Positions 1 through 64,000 of a stretch of 64,000 nt of DNA are shown here, in pieces (position 1 is the first letter of the stretch; every line of letters starts with the position of its first letter). The DNA lies in contig OZ237748.1 of assembly GCA_965178125.1 (NCBI GenBank), positions 248,001-312,000 of the forward strand. Reading direction: 5' to 3'. Origin of the DNA: Bilabrum cf. latius. Its lineage: Eukaryota. Under the pieces are notes generated by a model. The model saw only the letters and a list, made by a program, of their open reading frames with translations, was not told the origin of the DNA and searched no databases. The translations under genes and the position numbers were made by a program.

Positions 1-380
1 CAGTTTCATCTACATCCAACAATGGACTGCGGCAAAGGCCCAGACGTGACCCGGGCGCCTCGCCGGCTGTGCGCGGCGCCTAAATGAGTTCCGCTCACAC
101 AAATATGGTCGGCAGCTGCTACCGAAAATCAAGATTCGTTCGTTCGTTCGCTACCGCCTCTTGGAAGGCATTAGTCCGATTGTTCTATCAGTTTGAGATG
201 TGAGGACGTTTGTATCTGTCTTTTTAGTATCTGTACAACTTGGTCAGGCTGACACCGCTCCGCGGCAGCTGTTGTATCCGAGCTACCTATGGTGCGCTGA
301 AATCTGCTCGTGGATTCAATCCATATGAGTATGATTAACATGGTACATAGAATATTAAGGTTAATAATCAAAAATCACAG

Positions 381-3300
381 GGGAGACACACTTCTCACAG
401 CAGCCCTAAATGGCAAAGTGGACGCCCTGAGGGCCTGTCTGGATTCGGGAACGGACATCGAATCCAGAGATGGCGTGAGATTGAGTACCTTGTCCATCTA
501 TTAGATTCCTTTTTGAGTTAGTGTTCTTGTTTACACCATAAGGTCCACGTACAAGCTGTCACGGAGCTCCCAAGTGATGATATCCTCCTTTGGAGACCTG
601 ATGCACGCCATCGATTCGTTGATGAGCTAAATCAGGGGGTGATACGGGGAGGCTGCAGAGGCTGATGTGTACATGATACTCAAATGCACCTCTAGTTCTG
701 CTTCCTCTCCGCGCTTGGCCATCAGCGGATCCTCACCCCCCGCCACCAGGTTGCTCCCTTCCCTCGGGGTCTGCCACCCGCGACTACCCACCAACGGTTT
801 TATATTTCTTGAGTGCATTGCAGGATGGTTGGACAGCTGCATACTATGCGGTATGGAAAGGCGACACCGAGTTGCTGAAGGTGCTCATCGAGAGGGGCGC
901 CAACGTGAACGCTGCCAGAGACGTGAGAGAGAGAGGCTGCCTGCCCCACAGGGCGGGTTGTATGTGGTACCTGTGATATTTGATTTGGCGCGAGAGTTCA
1001 TCATGCTGGCATATCATTGGCTCCTCGTCGATCGAGCCGGGCCGGACCCCCGAGCGAGTGCTCCCCAGTGACTGATGAAGTCTCGAGGGGAGGGGCGATT
1101 TATTCTTGCTTTCTTGTGTATGCGGTCGATTGTATGTTGGTATGATTTGACTTTTCATGTCCTAGAGTATTGGTGCGAGGGTGGTTGGCCATCGCTCAGC
1201 CTCGGCCGGCTGGTCCACCTGGCTTTCGTGCTGGGTGAGGACAGGGGCAGGTGAGTGGTGGCTTGCAGGATGTGGATTCACAGGGATCGTGTCTAGGTTT
1301 TCGAGGCGAATGTTTACAGATTGATCGACTTAATATAGTAGCTATGTCCAAGGTTGGTTGTTGATCGATGACAACTGCCCGGGGGATAACAGGACTGGCC
1401 TGAGCATGGCCTTTGTGACGAGCATTCAGCTCGATCCTCATTCCCTGGCTTGCGCCTCCGATTGGCAGAGTTCAATGATTTTGCACTGATTAGTACATAC
1501 ATAGTATGACAAAGATGTGATTAATTTGAGTCACTAGCCTTTCGGGACATCAACTGCCAGCGAGCCGGCCGCCGCCCGTCCCCGCAGAGGGCCCCTCGGC
1601 TATCTCAGCCCCCAGGCGGATTCAGAGGCCGGGACCGGTCCCTGTCGTGATGGAATGGCTCGATAGGACAATTGGTGTATGTTTGGATTGGTTTTAATTT
1701 TGGTGATTTTGTCCCTCGAGCGGGAATTGATCCGGGAACTACACCCCTTGGACCCAGAGGGACTCCCACCAGTCCCTCCCAAAGCCCCCCACACCCCCAG
1801 CACCCGCCCCATGCCCACACACATCCACACCGACACCCACTCCGATCACACCCCCTGCTCCCCCTACCCCTTGTCTTCCATCCTTTGACCAAAGAATGGA
1901 TACACACCCGTTCATGCGGCATCCATGTATGGGAGGAAAGGCTGCCTTCGACTGCTGCTTGAAAATGGGGGGGACGTGCATGCGGTGAATGAGGTGAGAG
2001 AGAGATAAATATGTTGAAGGAGAGGTTGGTCTTGTGTGTGTCCGTGCTTGTATGTTGGATGGGTGTGTGTGTCTGTTCGGCTTGGGATTACCCCGGGCAG
2101 GGTCAGCTATTCGTTCGCGAACGTTCAGCTGATACTGGCGTGATCCTTTGATCGACCGGCGAGATGTCATTCCGGTTCGAGTCTACTCTGGGGAAAGAGA
2201 GAGATCAGCCTCTGCGCTAGACAAGATTAGCAAAGAAATACAGAAGCAGCCTAAGCCAGTAGCTTTCTTCTCTGGCACGGCCTGCGACGCCAAGATGCGA
2301 CGGCAGCTCAGGGCACAACGACCAGTCCGCAGCTCTGCGCCGCAGCAATGAGTACTATAACGATTTCAATGGCACAAGTTATTTAAGCAGTTTCGGGTCC
2401 GAGACCCGCTGGCAGGTCCCTTCGCGACGCTCCCGCTGCATTAACGGATTGGGGCTTGACACGTGTGTGCGTATTCCGGGCTGTAGGTATGGTATGGTAT
2501 CATGGTTTGGACCCATCGGAGCGATTTTCGGTGTGGGTGGGACCCTACTATATGATTCGACTCCAAATCCGAATTGTCGCATCGGATGGCGATCTATCAC
2601 TGGGAGATTGTTTCGTTTTGGTCTACAGTCCTCCGTTCATGAGCGTGTGGACATTTAATCTTGTATTTCTTTATCCTGTACTCGTACCAGCGCGAAATCT
2701 GAACTCTGTGGAAGCAGCCCATCTCGATCGGGACTGGCTTGTTATGAGCAGCAATGGTTTCATAGTACTGCATGTGTGTTTAGTGTTGGACAGATGCCTT
2801 TGGATTTCTTGGTTTACCTTTGTAGATGGCTCGGAATCTGGCGCTACATCACACTGTCTTTGACTCGATGCCGGACCCCCGCACAAGACCGCGGACACCG
2901 GTGGCAGATGTGCTGCATGGATTCAGGTACTCAAAGACTTGTCAATGGAATGCTTTTAGAGCAAATCATGTTGGCGCATTGGCTTTCAGTACCCTCCGAT
3001 TCAACCGCAGGATGGAGACACTCCCCTTCACAGGGCAGCGTACTATGGCCACACCGCCTGCGCTACTATCCTCATGGAAGCAGGGGCCCGCAGGGACATC
3101 AAGAACAACGTGAGCGTCTGTGAGCTTGCCAAACTGCATCGTAGCATGACTTGATTTCCTTGCTCCCATCATGCTGCCAGATGAATCGAAGAGTACTGTG
3201 AAATTACCCCCCCCTGTGCATCCCCCACACCGCGTGACATGTCATGCGCCCCTTTCCCTCGCTTTTTGGATTGAGCAGAGTGGCAAGCTTCCCGCTGAGT

Positions 3301-3611
3301 AGGCAGACTCTTTTCGTGAGACCATTACCGCTGCTGCGATCCGATCGTTCATTGCATCACGGCCCCGTAGAGCCCTTTGCTGGAGGAGGGCAGTGGAGGC
3401 CAAGAGGGACGCATCGATGGTGTTCCAGGCGGCGAGTGAGGGGCGGCCTTTGGAGCTGGCCAGGAGGCTGAGACTGGGCAAGCTGGCTGGTGGGTTGGAG
3501 ATCAAGGGAATACCAATACATGCCAGTGGGAGCTCTAGGCTGGTGCTTCCACTGGAGGCAGCCAGGCTGGGAGGGCATGATAATTGCGTGAAGCTACTGC
3601 AAGAGGCCTAA
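381..3611 (+). CDS. Host ankyrin-repeat protein, spliced (exons ~381-474, 824-922, 1895-1993, 3011-3109, 3279-3611; first exon not located)
   Basis: GT-AG bounded exons; three are exactly 99 nt and each encodes one ankyrin repeat (DGWTAAYYAVWKGDTELLKVLIERGANVN; NGYTPVHAASMYGRKGCLRLLLENGGDV; DGDTPLHRAAYYGHTACATILMEAGA). Last exon has an in-frame TAG at 3300-3302 and ends at TAA. Confidence 0.85.
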
Positions 3612-3921
3612 GGAGGTCATTAAGTACTTGTTTCTTTTAATTACGATAATAGACACGCAATTGACCCCGTTGGAATATCTGCGGCATGGCCCGCTCCCCC
3701 CCACTACGGTAATAAATAAATTTATTCCCTTCGGTTAAGGTTGATGAATCAACAATAATTACACGATGTCAGAGCTAAAGCTCTTCCACCGTATCCATTC
3801 CTGTAGAGGTTCTCACCTCTACAGTCAAAGTGTCCTCCTTCTCATTCCTCTTCATAAAGCTACTTTATACTACCTCTGTATCCTTCTAACTCTAAAATAT
3901 AAATCTCTATACACTAACGAT

Positions 3922-3969
3922 ATCCACGTTTTGAGAATAATTATATAGTATTACTAGCAAAACGTGGAT
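3922..3969. repeat. V1 intergenic palindrome (ATCCACGTTTTG...CAAAACGTGGAT); related copies at 29629-29676 and, inverted, 36844-36891
   Basis: Direct comparison; 29594-29676 and 36844-36926 form an ~80-bp inverted repeat pair. Confidence 0.85.
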
Positions 3970-4190
3970 GTACCCCTTGATATGATGGGCTAATGGGACT
4001 ATTGCCTATTTATACCGAAAAGTTCCATCACTTTTGAAGAACCATTATTCAACCTTCTTAACTACCTTCATTATACCCCCTTATCCAAGCTTATACCTTC
4101 ACAAATGGAACACACGCGCTTTTTGTTTTTAAATTGTTATAGAGCGTTTAAATTGACTTAAAAAATATATTTATTATAGGTATATACAGA

Positions 4191-4769
4191 ATGAGCTTTT
4201 TAGAACTATTAACCAAAAAATCTATGAGTTTGAGAAAGGAGCTTAGACCATCTAAAACATTTCTTAGAAAAGCTGAGCGGGTCCATTGGGAACGATATAA
4301 TTATCTATGTGATTTGTATGATGATGAGGATGAAATCATTGAATAGATTTTATACCTTGTATTAAAAAAGTATTAGAAAATAAAATTACGGATTATCAAA
4401 TAGGATACGATAGCTAAAATGGGAAAAGTGAAAGAAAACCGATTAACTTATAGTGAAATAGAACATTTAAGATATTATGGAAATAGGAGGAGTATTTAGA
4501 GTTTAATAAATGAGCGGGTTTCACATTCTCCTGAGATTAAAGCAATAATTCAGAACCATAAACAGAAAGTAGAACGTTTTAAGACTATATCAGAGAACAT
4601 AATATATACGCTAACTGATAACAGGTATTGGAAAAATAGAAAAGATAAAACAATTGAACAAACTATTAAAATCAAAGAGGAATTAATAGGTAGAGCGTGG
4701 CACCCTTCAAGATTAGAATGGGTATTGGATAACGAGGAGCGAGACGAGATAGAGGATAATTTTAATTAA
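4191..4769 (+). CDS. V1 hypothetical protein with C-terminal ELIGRAWHPSRL tail
   Basis: 192-aa ATG..TAA frame with four internal TAGs; last ~40 codons nearly identical to the end of the next gene. Confidence 0.75.
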
Positions 4770-4858
4770 TTGAATTTTAATAATATTAATGATTATTTAA
4801 TATTATAGATTGAGTTTAAAAAGGCTTAAATAATATATTAATTATAGGTATATACAGA

Positions 4859-5803
4859 ATGGAAGAATTTAAATGGGAAAACGGAACCTTGAAAGCAACA
4901 CAGCCAATTAATTATTACAGAGCTAGAAAAGGTTATATATTTGAAGGTCAAACCTACTACATAGTCAAAACCAGAAAGCAACTAAAAGATTTACTAACTA
5001 AATATAAGCCCGAAAGAATAGTAACTACATTCATTAAGTATATGAATTATGTATTCAAACATAGGGTGGATTTTAATGAACCTTTAAATACTTGGGATGT
5101 TTCTAATGTTAAGAATATGTGTTGTATGTTTGAAAATTGTAAATCGTTCAATCAACCGCTTGATAATTGGGATGTTTCTAAAGTGGAGAATATGGAAGAA
5201 ATGTTTAGAGATTGTAAATAGTTTAATCAACCATTGGGTAATTGGGATGTTTCTAATGTTAAGAATATGGGTTGTATGTTTGACAATTGTAAATCGTTCA
5301 ATCAACCATTGAATAAATGGAATGTTTCAAATGTTAAGAATATGGGTTGTATGTTTGACAATTGTAAATCGTTCAATCAACCATTGAATAATTGGGATGT
5401 TTCTAATATAAAAGGAATGTATGGTATGTTTTGGGGTTGTTCAACCTTCAATCAACCATTGAATAAATGGAATGTTTCAAATGTAGATATGATGTCTTAT
5501 ATGTTTTATGAGTGTGAAAATTTCAATCAACCTTTGAATAATTGGAATGTTTCAAATGTAGATTCCTTTACTTTTATGTTTGATGATTGTTTTAGTTTTA
5601 ATCATTTGGAGAATGGAATTAAGGATGAACGAGTTGATTATTCCACGACATTAATCCCATCATTAGAAGAGCGGAAAGATGAAACAATTGAACAAACTAA
5701 AAAAATCAAAGAGGAATTAATAGGTAGAGCGTGGCACCCTTCAAGATTAGATTGGGTATTGGATAACGAGGAGCGAGACGAGATAGAGGATAATTTTAAT
5801 TAA
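4859..5803 (+). CDS. DUF285/PARCEL-type repeat protein
   Basis: Repeated FNQPLNNWDVSNVKNMxxMF units; ORFs 4859-5221 and 5234-5803 joined by TAG (DCK*FNQPL). Confidence 0.85.
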
Positions 5804-5842
5804 GTTTTATTATAATAATTATTTTATTTTTAATTATTATAT

Positions 5843-6112
5843 ATGAAGTTATACACAGCGAAGGTTTATTTTTATGATGATGATTATAAAAATGTTGAAG
5901 ATACAGTTGAAACAAAAATATTTAAATCTTTTGAGAAGGCAAAAGAATACGCAAGAAAATTAATATACGATTGGGTTGATGAGCATTATGAAATAAATGA
6001 CTATGAAAATTTTGATTTGGATAAATCAATTGAAAGTAAATGGAATGAAGCTAATTTTAGAAACCAGAAATTTGATTATGAAATAGAGGAAGAAAACGTA
6101 GAGGATAGTTAA
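5843..6112 (+). CDS. V1 hypothetical protein
   Basis: ATG..TAA 89 aa with TATATA upstream. Confidence 0.6.
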   Translation: MKLYTAKVYFYDDDYKNVEDTVETKIFKSFEKAKEYARKLIYDWVDEHYEINDYENFDLDKSIESKWNEANFRNQKFDYEIEEENVEDS

Positions 6113-6148
6113 ATTTTAATAATATTATTATTATTATTAAAATATAGT

Positions 6149-6565
6149 TTAATCTTTTGAGACGATAAAATCATCTAAAGCCTTTTTGATAAGTTCATTC
6201 TTTTGTTTTTCAAGTTGTTTATTTAACTCTTCTTTCTCTTTTCTAATTATAAGATTAATAGCCACAGAATCGTGTAAATCTTCACTTAAATATTTGAGTG
6301 AATTATTATTTAACCTTTCTAATATTCTATACGGTTGAACGAAGTAAGACAAATAATCAATTTCTTCAAATTCACTTGTAATTCTTTTTTTAAGGCTGTG
6401 ATTGATGTTTGGGTCAGTGTCAAGGTCCATATATTGAAAATGCTTTAACATTGATGGTTTGTGCTTCTCAACATAAATATATACGATTGACATAAAAGTG
6501 GAAGGGCTTTTATTTTTTAAAAGTTTCTCTACATTAACGCTAGATAACAGGAACTTAACAAACAT
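6149..6565 (-). CDS. V1 hypothetical protein
   Basis: ATG..TAA 138 aa. Confidence 0.6.
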   Translation of the reverse strand: MFVKFLLSSVNVEKLLKNKSPSTFMSIVYIYVEKHKPSMLKHFQYMDLDTDPNINHSLKKRITSEFEEIDYLSYFVQPYRILERLNNNSLKYLSEDLHDSVAINLIIRKEKEELNKQLEKQKNELIKKALDDFIVSKD

Positions 6566-6669
6566 TTTATACTATAAATAATTATTTTATTTTAATTTAT
6601 TAAACACTTTATTAATATATTTTTTAGTTTAAAAAAAATAAAATAAAAAACATTATATGTATATACAAA

Positions 6670-7017
6670 ATGGATTTTAGAGCAATTTTTACAGATAAGA
6701 GTATAAGCAGAATATTAAAAATAGTTAGAGGGAAAATTAAAAGAATTTGTGATATACAAATACCGCTCTTATTAGGGGTAGCTTTGAAGAAGAGAACAGG
6801 CATAATCACGCTTGAGATTATTAAATATGAATTGATGTATAGAATACCTTTACCGGCAGTGTAGAATGATTTAATCCATTTTTCATCTTAGGATTATCAT
6901 AATGGCATAATAATAAGGGGATTAATGGAATCAGAAATAGCACGAGAAATAGAAAGAGTTGAAATGTAGTTTAAAAAAAATAAAAAAAATATAAGTTTAG
7001 TATATAATTATGTCTGA
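6670..7017 (+). CDS. V1 hypothetical protein
   Basis: Open with TAG=Gln to TGA; end depends on homopolymer runs. Confidence 0.45.
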
Positions 7018-8325
7018 TAAATTAGATTTAAAAATATAGATGTCATAGAATCTTGCCGGAAGGATAAAATGTAAGTGGCGCGATTTTGGAAAAGTCATAT
7101 GTGAAAATCTTACAAGTAAGATAAATGGAAATGAAATTATATTAAGACAATTTGATGAACAGCATAAAGATGGAAAAATTGAATTATCATTTACAACAGA
7201 TTATAAGGCAAACCAAATAATAGATATGCTTAAAGACTTAAGTGAAAAAAGACAGCATATTATCTTAGAACACGCAAAATACCAGCTGAGGCGAAGAAAT
7301 ATAGAACAATAGGAAGAAGCACACGAAGACCGACCAGAAGAAGACCATGACACTCCCGAAAGTGATAATGATTGTAATAGTAATGGCGATGATGATAGCG
7401 AAAATGATAGTAATAGTGATGATGATAGTAATAGTTGAACTCTGCTGCGAATCAATGAGTGCTCCTTCTACATGCCCAATGGCCAAATCACGGACCCGCT
7501 CCCACAGTTGGGGCAGTTCCATAAAAAAAACAAACAGGACGTCCCTGCGCCCGTCCCGCGCCCTCTCCCCCCCACGAGGGACAGTCCGCCCCGAATCGAC
7601 TGGTTCTCCTCAGTCGCGTCTCGCGCATGCTATACCACACTCGCCACAAATGTACACGCTACCCCAATCCTTGCATCGTCTGCGCCTCCAGGCTCGCTCC
7701 GATGCCTCCCCTTCTAGTCCTGCCCCATTCTGATCTGCTGTCTCCCTACGCACCCGTACGTCTCAGCCTTCGCCAGAAATCCTACTGCCTTGTGGTCTGG
7801 CCCCACTCGGCTGCCTCCGCTGCCCCTCCCTCCCCATGGGCCTCCACGCTCCCGAGCCCTACTGGCTTGCTCGGGCCTGTCCGTGCCCCTTCGTCGTCCC
7901 CGCCACGCGTCTGGTTAACCGCGCTCGGGGCATCCCGATCCTCCCCTTTCCTCCGTTCATCTTGGAATCCCCCTCTCCGTCGCCTCCCCCGGTGCCACCC
8001 GACCCCTTGGTGGGCCGCCGCCCGTCCACCCTGTCACCTCCGCCAAGCTCCCCCGTCTGCTCCTGTCCCCCTCTCACCTGGCCCCCTCGCTGTCACCTCC
8101 CGCCGTTGTTGTCCTCCACCTGCACGTGCGCTGCTGCTGTACCCTCCCCGTCGGAGCCCCCATCGCTGTCTCACAGCCCTCAATCCCAATGTCTGATGAC
8201 ACAGATAAGATGATGATAGCGATTGTGATAACAATGACAATAACCAACAACAAGAATCTAGAATTTGTTCTGCTAGATGTCCTAGAATTACAGCTTCTCA
8301 ACTAAGAAGATTACTTTTTGGTTAA
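7010..8325 (+). pseudogene. V1 hypothetical protein with D/N/S-rich tract, interrupted by a solo Ngaro repeat
   Basis: Removing 7436-8208 restores the frame ...DSNS|DDDSDC... to TAA. Confidence 0.7.
7436..8208 (-). mobile_element. Solo A-B terminal-repeat remnant of the Ngaro-B family
   Basis: Near-identical to 39809-40580; starts TGAACTCTG, ends ACACAGATAA; no target-site duplication. Confidence 0.9.
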
Positions 8326-8383
8326 TAGAATTTAAAAAGATAGTTTAAAAAAAAATTAAAAAATATCTAGTAATTATATACAA

Positions 8384-8755
8384 ATGGAACAATTACAAAA
8401 AGTAATAAACACAAGGTCTAAATTAAAAAATGAGTTTTTAGATATCGTTGATGATTTCAAGAAAACTAATCGTGAATTAGAACAAAAGTTAAAGCAACTT
8501 AAAATAAAAGAGACGGAATTAAAAAATAAAGTGAATAGTAAATTAATCGCTTTAAATGTGGAATATAAAGAGGTAAGCAAAAAGAAAACAGAAGCTGTAG
8601 CCCCTTATATGAAAAGTTTAAAAGAATTAAAGGGGCGAATGGATGGACTCACTAAGAAAGAAAAATTAAAGCTGGTTGATATCCATTAGGAGATAAGAGA
8701 AACGAAGGAGCAAATTAAAGTGAATGAAGCTATTGATAGGCTTTTTAACCCGTGA
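8384..8755 (+). CDS. V1 coiled-coil hypothetical protein
   Basis: K/E/L-rich frame read through one TAG to TGA. Confidence 0.6.
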
Positions 8756-8795
8756 ATAATTAATTTATAAATATTAAAACTATTTAATATATATA

Positions 8796-9950
8796 ATGAG
8801 TAAGAGAGGTAGAAAAAAAGAGGATGAGATAAACGATTAGTCATTTGGATTTAATACCAAAAGCTTAACAAAAGATTTAATGAAACCAGTAAAGGAACCA
8901 AAAGGATAGAATTATATAAAATATTATAAACCGACAGAGGCTAATTTAATATAGCAGGCTGATTTACTTTATTTACCTTACGCAACTGATAAGGATTCAA
9001 AATATTTGTTAGTGGTTATAGACACTAGCGGGTTAGGTTTAGATTTTGAGGCTTTAGAGAGTAGAAGCGCGGAAGATATAGTAAAAGCATTTAAAAGGAT
9101 ATATAAAAGGAAGTATTTAAATATTCCAAAAATGATAAGAACGGATAAGGGGGGTGAATTTGATAATGGAGATTTTAGGGAGTATTTAAAGGAGAATAAT
9201 ATAGAACATATTTTTTCAAGAGTGGGTCGTAAATCTTAGATGGCGTTAGTGGAAAGATTAAATGAGGAGATAGGGACAGCGATATTTTATTATTTGAATT
9301 CACAGGAGATAAAAACAGGGACAACGATAACGACTTGGAGGCATTTAATACCAAAGCTGAGGGAGATATTAAATTAGCGTTATAAATCCAGATAGGAAAA
9401 GTTGAATGAGAAAAGGGAGAAATTACCATTTAAACCGCCTAGATGTCAGGGTAATACGTGTGATATATTAAATGAGGGGGAATATGTGAGGATAGCTTAT
9501 GATTATCCTAGAAGTATAGAGGGGATAAAGGAGATTGGAAAGTTTAGAGCGGGTGATATTAAGTATTCTATTAAACCTTATAAGATAGAAAGAGTAATAA
9601 TAAAGCCGGATTACCCACCATTATATAAAATTGAGGATATACCATATACATATTTTAATAGAAATTAGCTATTAATAGCGTCTAAACCATATGATAATAA
9701 AGCTTAGGATATATTTATAATTGAAAAAATAATTAGAAAGAATAAAAATAATACTTACCGTGTTAAATGGAAAGATTCAATTACAGATGAGGCTACAAAG
9801 AATAAATATAAAAAGTAGATAGATAAAATAATAAGAATAATAAAATCAGGAGATGGAGATGTGAAGTATTTGATAAAATGGAAACCTACGACAGAACCGG
9901 CGTCAAATATATCAAAGACAATGAAAGATTTATTTAATAAAAAGAAATGA
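8796..9950 (+). CDS. rve (DDE) integrase with C-terminal chromodomain-like repeats
   Basis: QADLLYL (D), IRTDKGGEF (D), ALVERLN (E); C-terminal IEKII..YRVKWK and IDKII..YLIKWK; continuous only with TAG=Gln. Confidence 0.9.
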
Positions 9951-9995
9951 ATATTATTATTAATAAATTTAATAATAAAAATTTGAGTTTATTAT

Positions 9996-10613
9996 TTAAA
10001 CTCTATAGGTTAAACCATAAATTGACATAACCATCTAACTAAGATTTTCAAATGTGTTATAGACTGAATATTCTTTTGGATTGAAACTTTTTAAAAACTC
10101 AGCCCTTGAATGACGCGCTATTTCTTTATCTTCTTTTGATAATTTCTCCTAAACACTCATAAATAATTTATCACTTGGAACGGCTACACATACACTGCTT
10201 ACTTTGAAAATTTCCGTTGCTAGGTCAAAATCTGAAGTTAAAAATACGGCTCTGTGTTTCGGTTTTTGTAGCCAATTTTCTTTTACTTTTTCAATGCTAT
10301 TTTTCATAAGTTCAAATTTTAAAAGCTTAGCAGTGGATAAATCACCCCTAGCTTCTGCGTCATTCAAATGAACAACCTATTTTGTATCTGCGTTGACCTT
10401 TAATACTTCATCCAAATCAACCAATAGGATATTAGGGTCTATAGATGTTAAAGATTTATTTAATTCTGTTTTACCACCTTTACGTGGAAGAACTAAACAT
10501 AATTTTTTACGGTTAGCTAGTGAAGTCCAAAAGTCCCAACACCAACACCCCATATAACCCAATGGAACCAAAACCCCGCCTACCGTGCTTGCTGTTGCTA
10601 CTAACTCTGCCAT
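9996..10613 (-). CDS. P-loop NTPase/kinase-like protein with hydrophobic N-terminus
   Basis: LCLVLPRKGGKT Walker A-like and LLVDLD motifs; homologous to V2 54218-54856. Confidence 0.65.
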
Positions 10614-53583: not shown

Positions 53584-54090
53584 ATGAAAAACACAATTTG
53601 GAAGTTTTTAAATGAATACTTTGATGTCTTTAGTTTAATACTTAAAATACGAGACGAAAACCCTAGTGATGTCATAAGTACTATAATAGCAATGTATGAA
53701 GAGAGCGAAATAGAAGACCCAAAAGAGATCCATAAACATATGAGTGAAATACGTCATAACTTGGAACTTAGATTTAAAACAAAGTATGTTGAAGTCCTAA
53801 GCACCGATCACGATGACAAAGCAGAAAGCTATCTCCATCTTAATAATATATTATGTAATATTGAAGGAGAGCAATATGTGGAGGATAGCAAAATCAAGAT
53901 GTCCGAGAAAAAACAAGTATTTATAAAGACTTACGGTGATGTGGATAAATTCAACGAGACTGTCCAAGAGATGGAACAAGAAGACGAAAAGACTAAAACA
54001 GGAGTAGAAAAAGAAATAGATCAAAAGTTAAGTCTATTATGTAATACTTCTAAACAACCAGACAATATTTGTCTAGATTATAAATTGTAA
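53584..54090 (+). CDS. V2 hypothetical protein
   Basis: ATG..TAA 168 aa. Confidence 0.6.
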   Translation: MKNTIWKFLNEYFDVFSLILKIRDENPSDVISTIIAMYEESEIEDPKEIHKHMSEIRHNLELRFKTKYVEVLSTDHDDKAESYLHLNNILCNIEGEQYVEDSKIKMSEKKQVFIKTYGDVDKFNETVQEMEQEDEKTKTGVEKEIDQKLSLLCNTSKQPDNICLDYKL

Positions 54091-54217
54091 TATCAGTATG
54101 TATTTTAATTATAAAAATACAAATTGACAGGTTAGATACGACCGCCCCAAATTGCGGATATATTATAGCTATTCAAGATATATTTTCGCAATTCTGGGCG
54201 CGTAGGCGTATTGACTT

Positions 54218-54856
54218 TTATATGGAATAGCCAAGGTCTAGAGTCGAACGAAGCTTATCGTGAAGCTATTCGTAAGTATTATAAATGTAATAGCTAGAAG
54301 GGTTCAACTCTTTGATATATGAGTTACGGTCTTCTAACATAGACTTCTATTTATCTACTTTCTAATTCTTTAAAGTCTTCTAGAATAGTGAATTAGATGG
54401 AAGACATACAACTATACTTTCTTTTTTAAATAACTCATTAGCTAGACTTAACTCTTTAGTAAAGAATATTACTCTCTTCTCGCTACCTTCATTCAACCAG
54501 TTATCTTTTACCCATTGAAGGGCTTCTTTACTGGCTTTTCTATTAAGTATATTATAATTACCCCAATCACTTTTTAACTTACATTCGTCTAGTTTCATAA
54601 GTAATTCGGGCTCCTAGACATATACTCCTAGAGTACTATCTAAATCAACAAGTAAACAGTCTTTAGAACTAGACCGTAATATTTGACAAGCGGTAGACTT
54701 ACCACTACCTTCAGGCACACAGATACATATTTTTTTACGTTTATGTAAAGGTTTATCCCATAACCACTACCAACAAGACATACCACCAGAGTATGCTAGA
54801 GGTAGTAAGACACTTAAACCTCCTACAACGACACTGCTTGAACTGATTCCATCCAT
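54218..54856 (-). CDS. P-loop NTPase/kinase-like protein with hydrophobic N-terminus
   Basis: ICICVPEGSGKST and LLVDLD; homolog of 9996-10613. Confidence 0.7.
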
Positions 54857-54899
54857 TTTATTATATTAATAAAAAAGATATTTCTATAATTAAACTCAA

Positions 54900-55622
54900 T
54901 TATCCTGTTAAGAAAATACAAGGTACGACTTTATATTCTACTCCATTAGCATCAGTAGAAGTACCACTTGAAAAGTCTTCATCTACTAGAGCTTTTGCTA
55001 CAATAGTCTAATCAACAGAGACTGGTTGAGGATTAGGCGCGTAGACATATCCACTATCAGAACTATTAATTAAGTAATCACCCGCACTTACATCTCCTCC
55101 ATTTTTATTTACTTTCACAGCTCCATCACCTAAAGATGCTACAAGTACTTTACCATCATCATGGTGTTCTCCTACATATACTCCAAAAGGTGGTGAATGT
55201 TGAGATGCTTGACTTACGACATATTCATTAGTTGTGGGTCCTTTATTAACTACACTATCAAGAGTAACCACTGACCCAATACCAGCTGGTAAACTAGAAG
55301 CAACATCACTACAAGATGCAACATGTGTACCGGTAAATGATAAGAAGTTGGTTGCTGTCATAGTACTGGTTTGAGTTCCATCACCTGCGACATTAATTGA
55401 GATAGATGCACCTGCTGATGCTGAGTTTTTACCTATTCTCCATGTGAAAGACTTAGCATCTTCATTAGTACCACTCATAATATAGGGTAGTGATTGACCA
55501 TTGAAGTTAAGTCCAAAGTTAGCGGCTCCATCAAAGCCTTCTGCTTTAATTGATTCTACTTCAATAGACTTACTCTTTAATTCATATTCATTTTTGTTTA
55601 AGAGATTGTATATTCCTGCCAT
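54900..55622 (-). CDS. Putative short fibre/spike with intramolecular-chaperone-like C-terminal domain
   Basis: SFTGTH..LGDGAVKV..GDYLINSS..GY..TIVAK pattern recalled from viral fibre C-termini. Confidence 0.55.
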
Positions 55623-55865
55623 TACTTATATTATATTAGCTAGACTAGATATTTTTTTTTTAAATTACGAGATTTTAAAAAGTTAGTAGTATAAGATATA
55701 GTATAATACTAGCGCCCCAAATTGCGATAATATATTAGGATATTAAGATATATTTCCGCAATTCTGGGCGCGTAGGCGTATTGATTTTTATAATTTAGTC
55801 ATTTTTAATATAGCCACCTCTTACAATGTAATATTTTTAAATTAAAATATTATAGTATATACCAT

Positions 55866-57308
55866 TTAAAGACTTCTTAATCTTGAATCTAACCAAGATA
55901 TTAGAGTATCAAGTCTCTTATTAAGACCTGAACCTTCACCAGTCTTACTTTCACTTGCTCCACTAGATGATTGACCTTGTGCTTCTTGTTCTTGTTCTTC
56001 CCGTTCTTGTGCTGCTCGTGCTGCTCTTGTTCTTGCTTCTTGACCTTTACCAAGATCTTCACCTGCATCGCTTGCTACAAATTCTCCATCTGGTTGTCTT
56101 TCTAATAGTGTCCCTTCTGTCTCATCATCTAAAGGTTCATTACCTCTTGCTATCTATTCAGCAGCTTCATTCATTACATCACTTAATGCGGCTTCTCTTC
56201 GTAAGTCTGGATCTTTTTCCTTAGCTCGTCTAAGTCTTTCTTTAAGTGGAGTTCCTGACGGTTCTGCACGACTAAATGGGTTTGGTTGTCTTTTTCTTAG
56301 TGATAATTGTCTTTCAATATCTTTCTTTGCGTCATCAAACTTGATTCTATTTAAATTTACAAATCTAGTTTTACTGTCAAGTCCCGATTGTCTTCCAGTC
56401 TTAATATCTTGAAATAAGCTCTATAAATCATAATACTACATATCATCTATTGGCACACCATCATATTCATCACCTAATAGTGCTTTAAGTCTATCTTTTA
56501 GTACTGGTGCTTTAGATGTGGCTTTTGTTTTATAAATATCATTTATTGCTTCCATTCTTTTATTAAGTACATCTCTTTTTAGTTTAACTCGATCAGTTTG
56601 GCTTCGTAATCGTTCCAAAGCATAGCCTTTTGACTTTTTATCTCTTAATCTTTCTAATAGAGGTACTATTTGTGTTCCTTTTGCTCTTTGTCTAACTTTT
56701 ACAAGTCTTGATGCCATTGAATTAAGTTGAGCCTTAGAGAGACCATTTAAAGTTGAATCACTTACACCTCTCTCTTTAAGAAACTTCTTCAACTAGTCTA
56801 CTGTTAAGTCATTCTCTAAGTCTTTGACATCTTTAGGTAAATTGTCTATCTCTTCTGCTTCAATAAATAAGTTATTTAATGCGTCGTTAAGTTTTGACTC
56901 AGCTTTACCTTTTTGAAATAGAGTATTAGATGAGTTCATATATGGAATATTCTATATCATCTTAGCAATAGCTTCAGCATCTTCATCAAGTAGTTCATTA
57001 TCTTTGGCTAGTCTTACAACTTGATCAATATCAGCTACTTTATACTTTTTACCTTTCTTGCTATTCTCTTTAACTCTTTTTAAAGTCCTTTTCATAAGAT
57101 TTGCTATTCTTTTTAATTTTCTCTTTTCTTCTAATGGCATAAAGTCCTCTTCTAATTGAATCTTTTGTTTTCGTTTAGCTTCTCCTATAGCTGCTCTTAT
57201 GGCTCTCTCTTCGTTTCTTACCTTTCGTCTTGCTTGACTTGTAGGGGCTCTACTTTCCACAAGTCCATCGAGTAAGTCTTCCAATACTGCTGTTCTTTTT
57301 TTAGACAT
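55866..57308 (-). CDS. Large charged putative core protein
   Basis: 480-aa frame with TAG=Gln; syntenic with 10658-12664. Confidence 0.6.
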
Positions 57309-57347
57309 CGTATAATTATATTATGATAATAGATAATATTATTAAAT

Positions 57348-57791
57348 TTACATACCATTTTCTTTTAATATTTTACTTGCTTCTCCTAGACTTACGCCAT
57401 ACTTCTTCATTACCGCACTCACTAATTTACCTCTTGCTTTAGCTTTTGGATTAGGTTTCCTCTTACGCTTAGCCTTTCCAAGTCCTACAGTCTTAAGTGC
57501 AGCATCAAGAGGGATACCAACTTCAGGGGCTACAAACTTAAGACCTGTTCGTATTGCCTTTCCTACATTACTTTTAATACCTTTTTTAATTGTTCGCCCT
57601 ACTTTCTTGAATTTTCTACCTACTTTTTTAAAAAAACGTCCAACTTTTGAACCACCTTGAACACCATTCATTTGATAGTCTTCAAATAATTCAAGTAGTT
57701 TTTGCTTAAATTCGTCTTTTAAATTGTTGACTTTGGCATTAGAGGGTGATTTACCTAGTTGCTATAGTCTTTGTCTTATGAAATCGTCCAT
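57348..57791 (-). CDS. Basic core protein with an amphipathic helix after a GG site
   Basis: VQGG|SKVGRFFKKVGRKFKKVG; tail VSAVMKKYGVSLGEASKILKENGM. Confidence 0.7.
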
Positions 57792-57825
57792 TATAATAAA
57801 GAACTATAATATTTCTTATTAATAT

Positions 57826-58644
57826 ATGGTTAAATTAACAAAGTAGTAGCTAAAGTATTATTCACGATTTGATAATAAGATATTCAAGTCTTTTAAAATA
57901 AATAGAAGTGATATTTATTTAAATGGTTCATATTCATTTACTCATAATATGCTTTCACTTTGGGCTGGAGACATAGACCTATACTCTCCCGTTAAATTGT
58001 CTGATGTCAATAGTGTTATAAATGAATTAAAGACCTTAAGAGGTAGTAGATTAATACATATTTATAACGTTGAATATGATGATAATGGCGTCTCTTTAGA
58101 TACATTTCTTGATACTAATAGACCTAAAATATTAAAATCTTTAAAATAGTAGAATAATCCTATGATATTCGTTGAAAGTTGGGTCTATACTGGATATATT
58201 GAAGAGGTTAGTATATTATATGATATTGGAGGTAAGATATTGAAAATGAAGCCTAAACAAGTAGCAGATAGGATGATAGATGACATAAAAGACTTACAAA
58301 AAGAACGAAAATATTTCAAGATATTAAAAAGACTAGATGTTATATATGACGAATTAGGGCAAAAGAAGAAACAGGAAGAGATTGAACAACTTATAAAGAA
58401 TCCCGATGTAGGCTTTCTTTACTTGACTATTACAAGATTAAAAAGTTTATTACTTCCAACAGTTCCATTTAAATTAAAAAATAGAGTTATTGATAGACTT
58501 AAGAATGATGTACGTAAATTAGGACTTATTAAACCAGTATATCAATACTTTAATACGTTCAATAGTAAAGATGTAAGTATTATAATTAAATATTTAGAAG
58601 ACTAGCTCAATAAAAGGGTCGTTAAATTAGTTTCACATAATTGA
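57826..58644 (+). CDS. Nucleotidyltransferase-like protein (intact)
   Basis: YLNGSY...AGDIDLY; downstream IEEVSILY; helical C-terminus. Confidence 0.7.
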
Positions 58645-58838
58645 ATACACCTAAGCGCCCAGAATTGCAGACATAATTCTCTTGATACTTATATATTTCC
58701 GCAATTTGGGGCGCCCTATTTTGTGAGATTTTTATTAGATTGACCCGAAAATGTAAAACCTCTAACAGCCTACGCGCCCAGAATTGCACAAATATATCTT
58801 GAATAGCTATAATATTACCGCAATTTGGGGCGGTCGTC

Positions 58839-59360
58839 TCACCAGTCACTATAAAATAGCTCGTCAATGTCTTCTTCGTTAAGTTTATTAACTTTTTCTG
58901 TCGGATGGAGGGGATTATCTGGTCGTATGTCATGTAAATAGCACTTAAGTCTGAAAAATTTTAGATATTCATAAATTAACTACATATGAAAAAAGTCTTT
59001 TTTAAATAACCTTTCCCACTCAACGAATTGATTAAATTGGTCCTTACATTGGTTAATTTTCATTGAATTAGCATAGTCAAAGTTGAATGTTTTTAAGTGA
59101 TCAAAAGAAGACGATACATATCCGTTATCATTTAACGTAAAGTCCATATCATAATAGTACTTTTTACTGCAATTGATAATACATTCTCTATACTTACGAG
59201 CAATTAGAAGACAAGTTATATAATTAGTATAGCAATCTACTCTATCAGTTGTCATCATATTACGCTACTCTTCTGCTTTCTTATAGTACTAATTAACTTT
59301 ACATGAGTACTTATAAAATGATTTAATATATCTTTTTGAAATTAGAAGTTTGTGATCCAT
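58839..59360 (-). CDS. V2 hypothetical protein
   Basis: 173 aa with TAG=Gln. Confidence 0.55.
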
Positions 59361-59505
59361 TATTCTATATATTTATATGATATTTTAATCATATTCTTAA
59401 GACTGTGCACTCTAAAATGAATATTTGAAATGGCTACTTCTCACAATATACCTTTTGAACCCACTAATTATTAGAAAAATAATAAATATTAACATATAGT
59501 ATATA

Positions 59506-60573
59506 ATGTCATTATCATACGATGAAATACCAAATAGTCATTTAGTTGCTTTAAGAGAATACAAACACAAGAAGAGGAACAAAAGCGTCTTTTTTAGTGA
59601 AGATGTAGGGGAAAAAGTCATAACTCCAGAAGATATAAGTGATGATTTACTTGAAGAGTACTATGGAAAGAGAGCAATTAAATATGAGAAGAATAAAAAA
59701 GCATTACGTGAAGAGATGTGTAAGTTAGTGAATGGAAATAAAAAACTAGTTAGAAAGACTAACGAGTTAAGAATAGATGATAAGAGTTAGTTTGAAATAG
59801 TCCCATTCTTTGATGATGAGACCAAAAGACAAATACACTATTTAAGTGGTTAGGCTGGTGCTGGTAAGTCTTATATTGCTAAGTCTTTACTCAAGTATTA
59901 TCATATGTTCATTCCAAAGAAGAGGGTTTTAGTCATTACACCAGTACAGGAAACAAATCCAACTTATTTAAAATATGGTAATTTTATTGATATTGATAAA
60001 TTAGTAGCAGTAGATAGAAACGATAGTTATGATGACTTAATGAGGAAATATAAAGAAGAAAAGATATTCTTTAGGTAGGAAAAGAAGTCATTAGAACCTC
60101 ATGAATTAATTAAAAGAGAGATAGAGATAGAAAGAATGAAACCAACAAGTAAAGACAAGACAAAGGCATCATTTACCACTACTCCATTGTATGAAGAATG
60201 GGCAAAATAGGGTCCTTCTGTGGTGGTATTTGATGATTATGAAGCCTTAAACGGGGATAAAAAGTAGAGGGCGTTATTCTTAATTAAGCGTATAGGTGAA
60301 GTTGGAAGACATAGCTCAACAAATATGATAGTTATAAGTCATTTAACGAATGATTATGCGAATACTAGGTCAATAGTCATGGAAAGTCATAATATTATTT
60401 TATTTAAGAGAAATTTATGGAAATTTAGCAAATATTTAATGAAAGCATATTTGGGATTTGATGCAAGTCTTATCAATCGTGTTTATAAATTGTTTGGAGA
60501 AGGTAATAGATGGCTATGTATTAATAAGACTTATAATTTTATCACTTGTCCTAAATAGATGTTCGTATATTAA
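59506..60573 (+). CDS. A32-like packaging ATPase (intact)
   Basis: G*AGAGKS, VVFDDYE, VGRH, VISH. Confidence 0.92.
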
Positions 60574-60592
60574 TTTTCTTAGTATTAAGTAT

Positions 60593-61141
60593 ATGGATAT
60601 AACCACTGCATTAAGTCCTGAAGAGGTACAAAGACTATACTTTACATTTACAAAGTAGCATATACCAGTTATAATGTATGAAGAAATAAGTGATACTAAT
60701 AACATCAGACAATTTCTAGATGAAAATCCTTTATTTGTCCTTTATTATCCTAACTTAGTAGAAGGAGCAACAATGAGCGGTCATTATACTGCGGTCATAT
60801 TTAATAAATCAAAGAATACTCTTTATTTTTGGGATAGTTATGGTCAATTACCTGATACTCATATTCCAGTCGTAGGAGGAGTCATAGACCCATAGAAGCT
60901 ATATGATAGAAGTAGTCTTCTAATAGATCACGTATTAGATGCTGGTATTAATGTTGACTATTCAAATCAAAAGAATCAACTTATATCTAATAACTCTGCC
61001 ACATGCGGGAGGTGGTCAGTGCTCAGACTTCTCTTTCATAATTTAACGAATGATTAGTTTAATAGTCAATTAAAGAAGGCTTTTAAAAAGTATGGAGGAG
61101 GACTAGATAATGATGAACTTATTACTTTGATAATTAGTTAA
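60593..61141 (+). CDS. Maturation cysteine protease
   Basis: GHYTAV, FWDSYG, NQLISNNSATCGRW. Confidence 0.92.
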
Positions 61142-61347
61142 TATGACATATACCATAAATTTTTAGATATTGAAAATTGATATCTATAAGGTGGCCATAT
61201 TAAAAAGACTAAAATATAAAAATGAATACGGGTGAGCGCCCAGAATTGCGGAAATATATCTTAATATCCTAATATATTATCGCAATTTGGGGCGCTGGTA
61301 TTATACTATATCTTAAGATACTAAAAAAAAAATGTCTTTGAAGTCAA

Positions 61348-62013
61348 TCAAAATCCACGGAAAGTCTGTCCAACGTATTGTCCTCCAAACACAAGAGCTG
61401 CACCAAAAGCAACTTTCATCGTCTCAAAGACAAAATTGAGTATCGATGGCTCCGCGTTTCTCATCACCATCAACCAAATGGTAGGAACACCATCCCGTAA
61501 GAGGTGCAGGAGATGGTCTAACACGAAACAAATCCCTAGGTTGTCCCCGAAACGACATCCAGCCATACGAGCAAGGTACTCGAAGAAGGTGTAAGAGGTT
61601 AGGAATACGATCACCAGTACTCCAATGAAAACTAAGACTAGAGCAATCCTCATAAGTCCTATCAGTAAGTCCCCGCCACGATACCACAACCACCAGAGAT
61701 GAGCCTTGATCGTGTTGCCTTTCGTGGACTTTATCTCGTGCTCGGTCCTCCGCATCTCTTCTTTCGCCTTCTTCGCATAGCTCTGTTTAATACGATTGAT
61801 CCGGTACTTCATCTCGTCCACATCGTCTGCTTGGTCAAGAATCAATTTCTCACATTCCTCCGTCGTCAGTTCATCATCCCGTTTATCTTCAACAGGGGCA
61901 TTCTGTTGATTCTCAGCAGTTCCACCAGAACCATCGTCATATGACCCAATTATTTTCCTTCTTCTAGATTGAGACGGTTGACGGGATCGTGAATTGGACC
62001 GGCCAGAGGACAT
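61348..62013 (-). CDS. Predicted membrane protein of atypically high GC content
   Basis: 221 aa; SR-rich N-terminus, coiled coil, hydrophobic helices; flanked by V2 palindromes. Confidence 0.7.
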   Translation of the reverse strand: MSSGRSNSRSRQPSQSRRRKIIGSYDDGSGGTAENQQNAPVEDKRDDELTTEECEKLILDQADDVDEMKYRINRIKQSYAKKAKEEMRRTEHEIKSTKGNTIKAHLWWLWYRGGDLLIGLMRIALVLVFIGVLVIVFLTSYTFFEYLARMAGCRFGDNLGICFVLDHLLHLLRDGVPTIWLMVMRNAEPSILNFVFETMKVAFGAALVFGGQYVGQTFRGF

Positions 62014-62198
62014 TTTGACCCTATTTTGTGTGAATGGTGGCTAATCAATCCGATCGCAATAAATAAGATTTTTTCAAATATCACATAACTCAATACACCT
62101 ACGCGCCCAGAATTGCGGAAATATATCTTAAATAGCTATAATATTACCGCAATTCTGGGGCATTAGACAAGACTTATTTTCTTGATAAATGTTATAGA

Positions 62199-63125
62199 AT
62201 GGTAGAGATTCAAGAACCAGATATCTTTTATATTAACTCATAGGATACTATAACATCTATTGGTACTAATAGACCAGTATCAATACATGAACAGCGTCAA
62301 GGTAATATCTTGACAAATTCACAAAACTACTTATTATCACTTGACCGATGGACTCTTAAATGTCGTATTCCTTTATTTGTAGCAAGTAAAGAAGTAAAGA
62401 ATAGCGATAATTAGTCAATTTATAAGATGTCGTTTGTGAAGAAGAGTGATGGAACTACTTACACTCGTAATATTGTCTTAACCAAGTCGTTATATTATAG
62501 TCTTAAGACCTTATCTAATGAATTTAATAATACTCTTAGTGATTTATGTGGAGATGCTAGTATTCCAACTGATAGTATAGTATTTGAATATCACGGTAAG
62601 ACTAAAACTTTTAGTTTCACCCGTTTAGCGGCTTTTACAAGTGCGTGGACTTTAAGTTTTAACTTTCCTTTATTCTCTATATTTGAGACATTTGAATATG
62701 ATGATGAAGGTAAAGACATTAAAAGTGATACTTATATAAATCTTTTAGATGGATACAATGAATAGAGTGCTTCTACCTTAGATTAGTTTCCTACTATGGA
62801 GTATATTCAAATTATTAGTCCATCTCTTCCAATACTTCCAGAATTTACGCCATCATATAAAAGTACATCTAGTACAGAGATACAAAGTGAAAATATCTTA
62901 AGTGATTTCAAGATAGACAATACAACAGGAACGAGTTTTATTAAAATAAACTTTAGTAGTGGAGGAAATCATAGATGGCAATAGTTCTATAGATCAGCAT
63001 TTAATAGTTATAGTATAGTACCGTATTTTAGAGATACTTTTGGAAACTTATACGAAATACCCTTTACTTTTGGACAAGGACTTAATATAAAAGCTCTATT
63101 TAAAAGTAAAAAGTTAATAACTTAA
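62199..63125 (+). CDS. Minor capsid protein (penton)
   Basis: Homologous to 29883-30833 (IHEQRQGNILTNSQNYLLSL; LPILPE; LSDF). Confidence 0.75.
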
Positions 63126-63167
63126 AGTAAAAAATAAATAAATATCTTTAGTCTTAATATATTTATA

Positions 63168-64000
63168 ATGTCTGATATGGATAATGTACCTGTAGCAGCA
63201 CAAAGCAAAGTCGTAGATGACGTCTCAGAACTACCAGTAACTCAAATAGCTGACGAAAAACTTAACTTTGTAGGTGATAGTCAAGCTATTACTTTAGGAA
63301 CTACCCTTGGATACTCTTCCAAGTTCCAAAACCACTATGAACCAGATGGTGGTAACTCTAGCGCAACTAATGCATTTAGAAGTAATTACACTTTCGTCGT
63401 GCCATCAAATCAAGGAATGACTGACAGTAATCCCCGTCTAAGAGTTTCATTCGACTTATACGTTTATGATAGTAAGAACAATGGAGCAGTAGCTCAAACT
63501 GATATCGTCAATAAGGTAGCCCCTTCTACATTTATGGTAAATTCAATGATCACAAGTTCCACAGTTAAAATGGGAGACTTATCTCGTAGTTCATCACCTT
63601 ATCAATTAGTCAATTTAATAGCTAGAAGTCTTGACCGTGCCACTCTAGCACAAATAAGTCCTGTCTTTTAGGCTGATAACACTTGGGAATTTAATACTGC
63701 CGCAAATGGTCTTGCTAAGTCTGTCCTTCAATGGGGTGTAAATGATGATAGTATTATGGAAGCTCGCGGTCCTGGTAAGAATTATCGCGCAACACTTGAA
63801 AAAGTGGATGCTAATACTCCAATACCTAATAACAATGTAACTCCAACTCAAGACTATATCAAATTACATATTGAAATCTCTGAAGCACTTCTTGCACGTC
63901 CTTTCCAATATATGATGGGTGGTAATGCTAGACCTTTTGTTGATCATCCACAATTAAATGTTAATTTACAAATGAGAAATAACTTAATTGATAAGATGTT
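63168..64000 (+). CDS. Major capsid protein, N-terminal part (truncated by the window)
   Basis: Follows penton; similar to the V1 MCP start (TLGTTLG versus SLGTELG); frame open to the window end. Confidence 0.75.

Follow-up and report, generated by a model that had tools for sequence, protein, structure and literature searches.

Two integrated virophages and the Ngaro retrotransposons nested among them carry TAG as a sense codon, probably for glutamine, in a protist contig

We analysed a stretch of 64,000 nucleotides from contig OZ237748.1 (positions 248,001 to 312,000; assembly GCA_965178125.1, Bilabrum cf. latius), hereafter called the window, in which a host-type ankyrin-repeat gene, two virophages (V1 and V2) and two Ngaro retrotransposons (Ngaro-A and Ngaro-B) follow one another (Table 1). 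A preliminary description made from the letters alone had proposed that all of them share a code in which UAG specifies glutamine (Gln) while UAA and UGA remain stops; our results support this most firmly for the virophages, somewhat less so for the Ngaros, and leave it a probable inference for the host. Base composition divides the window into AT-rich blocks (~29-34% guanine plus cytosine, GC), which are the two virophage genomes, and GC-rich blocks (~58-68% GC), of which the big ones are Ngaro-A and Ngaro-B; the flanking host DNA on the ankyrin side has 54% GC and contains introns. We consider it likely that the window comes from the nuclear chromosome of a protist, that a host ankyrin gene adjoins two virophages there, and that Ngaros have inserted into these repeatedly.

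Table 1. Features of the window and their positions (ORF, open reading frame; aa, amino acids; RT, reverse transcriptase).
Feature	Position	Strand	Remarks
Host-type ankyrin-repeat gene fragment	1-3611	+	short exons, introns roughly 1 kb; stop TAA 3609-3611
Virophage V1	3612-39808		AT-rich (GC ~0.29-0.34), mavirus-like, ~21 kb minus insertions; 62 in-frame TAGs in 16 listed ORFs
Solo Ngaro-B-type terminal repeat in V1	7435-8208		99.7% identical to 39809-40580
V1 rve integrase with chromodomain	8796-9950	+	384 aa, 9 TAG; Pfam rve 1.5e-11, Chromo 3.7e-5
V1 packaging ATPase	17498-20334	+	coding pieces 17498-18010 and 19787-20334; GC-rich insertion ~18010-19790 between them
Ngaro-A	20332-28910	-	ORF1 26310-28445; ORF2 (RT/RNase H) 22152-26183; ORF3 (tyrosine recombinase) 21151-22314
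V1 cysteine protease	28969-29544	+	191 aa, 3 TAG; TAG 29386-29388 lies 9 residues before the Cys of SATCGRW
V1 penton (minor capsid)	29883-30833	+	316 aa, 7 TAG; Pfam V18-19 (Sputnik minor capsid) 5.6e-9
V1 major capsid protein (MCP)	30907-32778	+	623 aa, 9 TAG; mavirus MCP 6g45, E 8.8e-6
Second solo Ngaro-B-type repeat in V1	33956-34645		99.4% identical to 7521-8209 and 39894-40580
V1 putative protein-primed DNA polymerase B (pPolB)	38281-39777	+	498 aa, 4 TAG
Ngaro-B	39809-48268	-	ORF1 45650-47866; ORF2 41668-45333; ORF3 40667-41830; 8 in-frame TAGs
Virophage V2	48269-64000		AT-rich, runs past the window end; 59 in-frame TAGs in 17 listed ORFs
V2 rve integrase with chromodomain	50998-52653	+	551 aa, 12 TAG; Pfam rve and Chromo
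V2 packaging ATPase	59506-60573	+	355 aa, 6 TAG; weak AAA-type Pfam matches
V2 cysteine protease	60461-61141	+	3 TAG
V2 penton	62199-63125	+	308 aa, 5 TAG; aligns to V1 penton; tblastn matches in IMG/VR loci L026, L028
V2 MCP, N-terminal 277 aa, cut by window end	63168-63998	+	aligns to V1 MCP; tblastn matches in IMG/VR loci L027-L029

The core genes stand in the same order in V1 and V2 (integrase, p205, p668, p129, p208, ATPase, protease, penton, MCP), and their proteins share roughly 20-38% identity across the locally aligned stretches; the two are divergent, only distantly related virophages. The rve integrase lies above the Pfam cut-off in both. A virophage-type capsid is present as well, since the V1 MCP and penton found matches (the penton with 35.7 bits on Pfam V18-19, cut-off 27 bits) and the V2 counterparts align to those of V1. 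The AAA-type Pfam scores of the packaging ATPases fall under their cut-offs; a Walker-A stretch (GKSGSGKS) is visible in the V1 ATPase, which also gave tblastn matches to the ATPase regions of IMG/VR loci. For the putative V1 pPolB a Pfam search returned no match, and the assignment comes from motifs recognised by eye (DxxSxYP, KxxxNSxxG and a TDS-like one) together with tblastn matches in IMG/VR loci L027 and L029. The protease had no match in Pfam or in PDB sequence searches with a single sequence or a profile; it has 34 relatives on IMG/VR viral contigs, and its His, Asp and Cys columns are conserved. No relative of the V1 MCP appeared in a word-indexed protein search at near lengths or in an IMG/VR search, none of the V1 MCP or V2 ATPase alignments found a relative in JGI metagenome contigs, and the ATPase had none in IMG/VR. 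In the 25 integrase-anchored IMG/VR loci (L001-L025), matches were limited to the integrase and GIY-YIG.

Ngaro-B sits exactly between the V1 pPolB stop and a 660-bp non-coding stretch leading into V2 (39778-39808, 48269-48930). Between V1 and V2 we recognised no host DNA, and the two virophages may be nested or joined end to end. We found no terminal inverted repeats linking the V1 left end (3400-4300) with 39700-39830 or 48268-48950, and the V2 right end lies beyond the window; the Ngaro-B insertion may mask the virophage ends. Each virophage has a conserved 60-90-nt intergenic element of its own, 80-92% identical among copies, that precedes several genes on either strand (V1: 3906-3972, 29613-29679, 36844-36907; V2: 48629-48703, 54134-54220, 58639-58713, 61211-61294). 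These elements, which differ between V1 and V2, are probably promoters.

Five GC-rich insertions interrupt V1. Besides Ngaro-type sequence they include a block at 13614-16865, which holds 35 copies of a 72-bp unit (14159-16697; minus-strand reading MEQPADAELHAAAPAADAQVAAGK) and is bounded by 170-bp direct repeats (13614-13783 / 16696-16865, 99.4% identical). A second type, at 18010-19790, splits the ATPase gene and carries 160-180-bp repeats (18640-18799 / 19512-19671, 100% identical), a third copy of which lies at 37452-37612 within the V1 ORF 37001-37765. Its ORF 18472-19323 ends in a motif that, by eye, resembles a tyrosine-recombinase C-terminus (HxxR ... Y), with no Pfam match. Two adjacent V1 genes, p192 and one for a DUF285/FNIP-repeat protein, have in common a 170-bp C-terminal module that is 92% identical (4641-4807, 5675-5841).

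Both Ngaros have split direct repeats in the arrangement A1-[ORFs]-B1A2B2. The A repeats are 614-631 nt long and 100% identical in Ngaro-A (20452-21065 / 28296-28909), 98.6% in Ngaro-B, and the B repeats match at 89/90 positions in Ngaro-A (20332-20421 / 21062-21151) and at 87/87 in Ngaro-B. Because its A repeats are fully identical, Ngaro-A seems to have inserted recently. DNA identity between the two copies is 77-84%. ORF3 scores 29.5 and 29.3 bits on Pfam Phage_integrase (cut-off 27.1; 7.4e-7 in Ngaro-A), and the RVT_1 (16.5-20.1 bits) and RT_RNaseH (~18 bits) matches are weak, both under their cut-offs. The recombinase matches in the ESM Atlas brought no taxonomic information that could be used. 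Upstream of the RT, ORF2 contains an in-frame tandem array (45 bp x 17.7 at 24401-25196 in Ngaro-A, 51 bp x 13.1 at 43958-44623 in Ngaro-B).

Several stretches of the window are matched without any difference by contigs from an independent sequencing run. Contigs of runs under three other organism labels (X5, X6 and X8) contain the Ngaro-B-type repeat 7465-8211 without a single difference, and run X6 also has V1-like DNA at ~82% identity; V1 DNA has no cover in X5 and X8. The elements are therefore common to several closely related sources.

The code was tested with a control independent of how genes were drawn, in which we measured how much of 36,600 AT-rich bases is covered by ATG-started ORFs of at least 100 aa. 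Under the standard code the covered fraction is 0.327, with no ORF of at least 300 aa. When the genes are re-called with TAG as a sense codon, as the preliminary description had advised, it rises to 0.759 with ten such ORFs; TGA as sense yields 0.352 and TAA as sense 0.516, with one such ORF each. TAG and TGA are equally frequent as trinucleotides in the AT-rich DNA (1313 vs 1317). The 33 virophage ORFs comprise 9015 codons with 121 in-frame TAGs, at least one in 29 of them; TAG makes up ~1.3% of codons in V1 and V2 alike, and its positions are uniform along the ORFs (Kolmogorov-Smirnov, KS, p=0.65). Two TAG-TAG doublets occur in the V2 ORF 57826-58644, at residues 7-8 and 108-109. Counted in frame and in the two other frames of the 32 closed ORFs, TAG occurs 120, 270 and 214 times, TGA 0, 152 and 459 times, and TAA 0, 366 and 665 times.

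We dropped as a statistic the statement that all in-frame stops are TAG, since the ORFs were defined to lack TAA and TGA and the count is hence partly circular. The same applies to the earlier assertion that every gene ends in TAA or TGA, which is true of the ORFs (23 end in TAA, 9 in TGA, 1 is open) and circular as it was put, because it follows from the ORF definition. The comparison of V1 with V2 is more telling: among six gene pairs, the stops of protease and p205/p212 coincide in the alignment and those of the rest lie a few residues apart at most; all are TAA or TGA, and the protease stop is TGA in V1 and TAA in V2. ORF cover, frame counts and these gene ends together therefore show that TAA and TGA terminate translation in the virophages and that TAG is translated.

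The identity of the residue was addressed with the V2 integrase. With every TAG entered as X, a search of 1.84 billion representative proteins supplied the 149 homologues (28-41% identity) that we aligned to it. Only four of the 359 well-occupied columns are Gln-dominant; V2 has TAG at three and an ordinary Gln codon at the fourth (hypergeometric P=2.9e-5). The three TAGs, at 51556, 51919 and 52366, stand in columns with Q in 121/148, 83/149 and 92/140 sequences, and one of these columns aligns with the Q in NPQSQ of the solved retroviral integrase 4pa1. Gln is the only residue that dominates any TAG column, and BLOSUM62 sums over the TAG columns favour Q (8.8) over K (1.4) and E (0.7).

A second, independent line of evidence is given by 34 IMG/VR loci (L026-L059), which a search with the protease alignment retrieved and against which we then compared every virophage protein of the window. 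The V1 protease TAG 29386-29388 falls in the sole conserved-Gln column of the family (Q in 20/22 relatives); V2 has CAA there (Q in 22/23). This TAG/CAA pairing had been pointed out before and its codons were verified here; the residue concerned may form the oxyanion hole, as the preliminary description proposed. The two proteases also show reciprocal TAG/Gln pairs, with the V2 TAG 61055-61057 (LTNDxF) opposite CAG in V1. Over the 60 TAG columns covered by the loci, Q is the top residue, with a column-weighted share of 0.128 (background 0.035); the share is 0.170 at CAA/CAG columns and 0.012-0.057 at K, E, S, L or Y columns, and the BLOSUM62 sums are 17.4 for Q, 3.1 for E and -1.9 for K. The relatives use the standard code, with 1 stop in 21,618 aligned residues.

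One close relative and the codon composition are consistent with this. A public protein fragment, P0154, matches the C-terminal half of the V1 MCP at 87% identity and has Q, Q, Q and T at four TAG sites (the three Qs opposite 31828, 31834 and 32572). It starts with M at a V1 TTG codon, ten codons past V1 TAG289, and since this start fits standard-code gene calling, its Qs are most likely real Gln codons. TAG-rich genes are poor in CAA/CAG (rho -0.39, p=0.028), TAG accounts for about a third of the Gln codons in the virophages, and counting it lifts Gln from 2.75% to 4.1% of residues. The DUF285/FNIP-repeat protein is neutral here, its single TAG falling where the repeats vary (the others have S, T or N). 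On these comparisons, TAG very probably stands for Gln in both virophages.

The public protein collection already contains an exact match to the V2 ATPase and a copy of the V2 integrase with a single residue changed, both full length and with Q at every TAG site; for this reason we conclude that an automatic gene caller had already chosen the TAG=Gln reading. The same collection holds fragments of relatives, P0154 and P0153, with ends at TAG sites of window genes. The prediction that standard-code pipelines would call these genes pseudogenes is correct in part only. In practical terms this is a warning, as fragments ending at TAG sites are stored beside full-length versions with Q.

In the Ngaros, the alignment of the two copies has ten TAG-bearing sites with 12 TAG codons altogether (28431, 28347, 27582 and 22701 in Ngaro-A, the rest in Ngaro-B). 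The partner of TAG is CAG at four sites, CAA at two, ACC (Thr) at one and CGG (Arg) at one, and two sites, absent from the preliminary description, have TAG in both copies. The six pairings with Gln had been listed there in contexts that we find to be exact (RIxAR/RLQTR, RLQV/RLxT, TPGQN/TPGxN, AKQE/AKxE, GTLxL/GTLQL, GSQA/GPxE), and its report of two further TAGs opposite R and T is equally accurate. TAG forms ~7% of the Gln codons in these GC-rich elements, and the TAGs lie before or within the RT and RNase H regions; the RNase H region of Ngaro-A holds one despite the 100% identical A repeats of this copy. Among 4787 Ngaro codons there are 12 TAG, 138 CAG, 25 CAA and no in-frame TGA or TAA, whereas one-step nonsense mutation predicts ~60% TAG (P ~0.006 for ten sites). 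With good confidence, TAG encodes Gln in the Ngaros as well.

As for the decoder, ARAGORN and Rfam found no tRNA in the window, nor did Rfam find any other family; the tRNA-Gln(CUA) that the preliminary description had suggested looking for is therefore not in this stretch. Retrotransposons and integrated virophages that carry no tRNA must be translated by what the cell provides, and for this reason the host itself probably uses the TAG=Gln code. Since no element carries a tRNA, decoding by the cell would be the likeliest mechanism: the cell may insert Gln at UAG by means of a tRNA-Gln that has a CUA anticodon, its release factor having ceased to recognise UAG, and its parasites may have drifted into that code once changes from CAA or CAG to TAG became silent. 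The decoding machinery would then be owned by the host, and any helper giant virus would have to cope with the same code.

Several observations weigh against this reading or some part of it. The ankyrin gene itself gives it no support. Its repeats are recognisable in frame translations near 361-475, 820-930, 1890-1995, 3009-3107 and 3420-3608, and none of these five exon stretches contains TAG; with only ~0.3 expected at the Ngaro rate, this absence is uninformative. The single TAG in the frame of the last exon, 3300-3302, lies ~120 nt upstream of the start of ankyrin homology and is probably intronic, so that the claim of a TAG within a host ankyrin exon is not confirmed. Moreover, the Ngaros may be specialised parasites of virophages, and if their translation coincides with the presence of a helper virus, they are not fully independent witnesses for the host. 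Their two shared TAGs are located within the terminal repeat, perhaps ahead of the true ORF1 start; without them eight sites are left (0.6^8 ~0.02). In the V1 integrase none of seven TAG columns is among the Gln-dominant ones, and the V1-V2 pairwise alignments have Q at only 5/58 TAG pairs, being too diverged to name the residue; the empirical likelihood pooled over both integrases is flat. P0153, whose identity to the V2 ATPase is 80%, shows H, E and D opposite three of the TAGs and ends just before the fourth (TAG351). Finally, the last TAG stands 1-8 codons before the TAA or TGA stop in 6 of the 28 TAG-containing ORFs, and given TAGs so close to stops, termination at TAG may occasionally occur.

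Apart from these observations, the ankyrin region is a multi-copy family, with contigs from the runs of four organisms placed on 1-13600. A loose contig end with GCC-TAG-GGA beside an ankyrin repeat was considered as TAG evidence and rejected, as it is out of frame with the ankyrin frame of the window.

The alternative that survives best, although we regard it as unlikely, is that the recoding belongs to a virus: the host would use the standard code, and a helper giant virus would supply a suppressor tRNA-Gln(CUA), perhaps with control of the release factor. Full translation of the virophages and the resident Ngaros would then take place only while a giant virus infects the cell, in a eukaryotic counterpart of the 'code 15' phages. 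In its favour, the window has no host codon in which TAG is seen as sense, and neither virophage has a tRNA, so the decoder must come from elsewhere. Against it, no eukaryotic virus is known to us to have a separate genetic code. The Ngaros, moreover, are GC-rich and host-like, and their RT and RNase H need TAG read-through. TAG is present in 29/33 virophage ORFs, including the integrase, without the confinement to a late-gene block that many recoded phages show, and two lineages with ~20-38% protein identity share ~1.3% TAG codons, a trait that their nearest IMG/VR relatives lack. Also in favour of a virus-owned decoder, giant-virus metagenome-assembled genomes (MAGs) have been found to annotate better under alternative codes (PMC13524828), and Ngaros favour virophage DNA in Cafeteria (PMC8547959). 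If this alternative were true, the elements would be translationally locked until a giant virus arrives, and it would be the first case of virus-owned recoding of the code 15 style in a eukaryotic virus system.

It is less likely still that only the virophages are recoded and that the Ngaro TAGs are ordinary nonsense mutations in decaying copies, uninformative about the code. In GC-rich ORFs (138 CAG codons here) stops arise most often by a C-to-T change of CAG, TAG would be ~60% of one-step nonsense mutations, and only 12 TAGs are available, two of them perhaps outside the true ORF. Decay would nonetheless have to produce no TGA or TAA in 4787 codons (P ~0.006-0.02) and TAG opposite two CAA codons that are two steps away. 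It also conflicts with the identical A repeats of Ngaro-A and with purifying selection between the copies, whose ratios of nonsynonymous to synonymous substitution (dN/dS) are 0.26, 0.28 and 0.07 for ORF1-3 at dS 0.6-0.75. We therefore hold decay to be an unlikely cause of the Ngaro TAGs, with the caveat of a small sample.

Lower again we place the possibility that TAG is ambiguous or context-dependent, Gln inside genes and stop for some of them, or that it codes for another residue. The TAGs in the last eight codons (e.g. V2 integrase DRxR-stop, V2 ATPase PKxMFVY-stop), the end of P0153 exactly before ATPase TAG351 and the H, E, D or T at TAG sites in some close relatives would fit it. However, ~3.3 of 32 ORFs are expected to have TAG in their last eight codons, so that six are no significant excess; TAG positions are uniform by the KS test, TAG-TAG doublets lie inside a V2 ORF, and Gln ranks first by a wide margin in three independent data sets. 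That the genes are dead pseudogenes or their stops assembly errors has next to no probability: premature stops in other endogenous virophages and polinton-like viruses did prove to be artefacts (PMC8547959, PMC10120064), but here 121/121 in-frame stops are TAG vs ~24% by one-step mutation (a partly circular count), the non-circular TGA-as-sense control agrees, TAGs fall in conserved Gln columns, and the independent-run contigs match without difference.

Two distantly related virophages under TAG=Gln imply that a whole system of giant virus, virophage and host operates with this code. The protist may be recoded and support the replication of a giant virus, or else the decoder is supplied from the virus side. 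A shared code could serve as a marker for assigning candidate helper viruses to a host in metagenomes. A virophage outside the standard code should be of interest to those who study virophages, giant viruses and the evolution of the genetic code, and a literature search found no virophage or Ngaro described under a variant code.

Among known systems, the 'code 15' phages (crAss-like and Lak) show the same single reassignment of TAG to Gln in a mobile genome. Such phages usually carry their own suppressor tRNA and concentrate the recoding in late genes, unlike the elements of the window, which have no tRNA and have TAG in nearly every gene. Nuclear codes that reassign UAG alone are known from Iotanema. 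They have also been described in phyllopharyngean ciliates (PMC11687900). There, as here, UAA keeps its meaning; for these codes no link to virophages or Ngaros is reported, and in our case a change at host level is probable.

Alternative codes were tried on giant-virus MAGs in a 2026 catalogue, according to which every confirmed isolate comes from a standard-code host (PMC13524828). MAGs that are better annotated under such codes resemble the present case in hinting at giant-virus systems in variant-code hosts. They are bins without a known host, and the highlighted case has code 6, whereas the virophages described here are chromosomal and lie beside a host gene, with no giant-virus sequence in the window.

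Integrated viruses that share the variant code of their host are already known from Streblomastix strix, whose polinton-like endogenous viruses use the TAA/TAG=Gln code of the host, which the authors read as a sign of long association (Bellas et al. 2023, PMC10120064). The elements of the window are likewise integrated small dsDNA viruses in a variant code, with the host's share of that code reached by inference. In Streblomastix both TAA and TAG encode Gln, whereas here only TAG does so and TAA is the main stop (23/32 ORF ends). The Streblomastix elements also belong to the metamonad polinton-like MCP group, and those of the window are mavirus-type virophages with nested Ngaros (PMC10120064).

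The closest structural counterpart is found in Cafeteria burkhardae, where endogenous mavirus-like elements (EMALEs) contain nested Ngaros and virophage elements are the site of 91% of the type 1 Ngaros (Hackl et al. 2021, PMC8547959). As in that species, the nuclear genome harbours AT-rich virophages into which GC-rich Ngaros have inserted; the gene set is alike (rve integrase, ATPase, cysteine protease, penton, MCP and pPolB), and so are the Ngaros, with A1-[ORFs]-B1A2B2 repeats, Gag-like, RT/RNase H and tyrosine-recombinase ORFs and solo AB repeats (PMC8547959). The differences are also clear. The V1 capsid protein is only remotely similar to that of mavirus (E 8.8e-6), the window Ngaros are 8.5 kb long against ~6 kb in Cafeteria, and the flanking host DNA has its 54% GC and introns. 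The Cafeteria ORFs were called intact and the genetic code is not mentioned once in the main text, so that its EMALEs were presumably annotated under the standard code, whereas here 29/33 ORFs need TAG=Gln (PMC8547959). The association of virophages with Ngaros, termed "unique" in Cafeteria, is now present in a second genetic background (PMC8547959).

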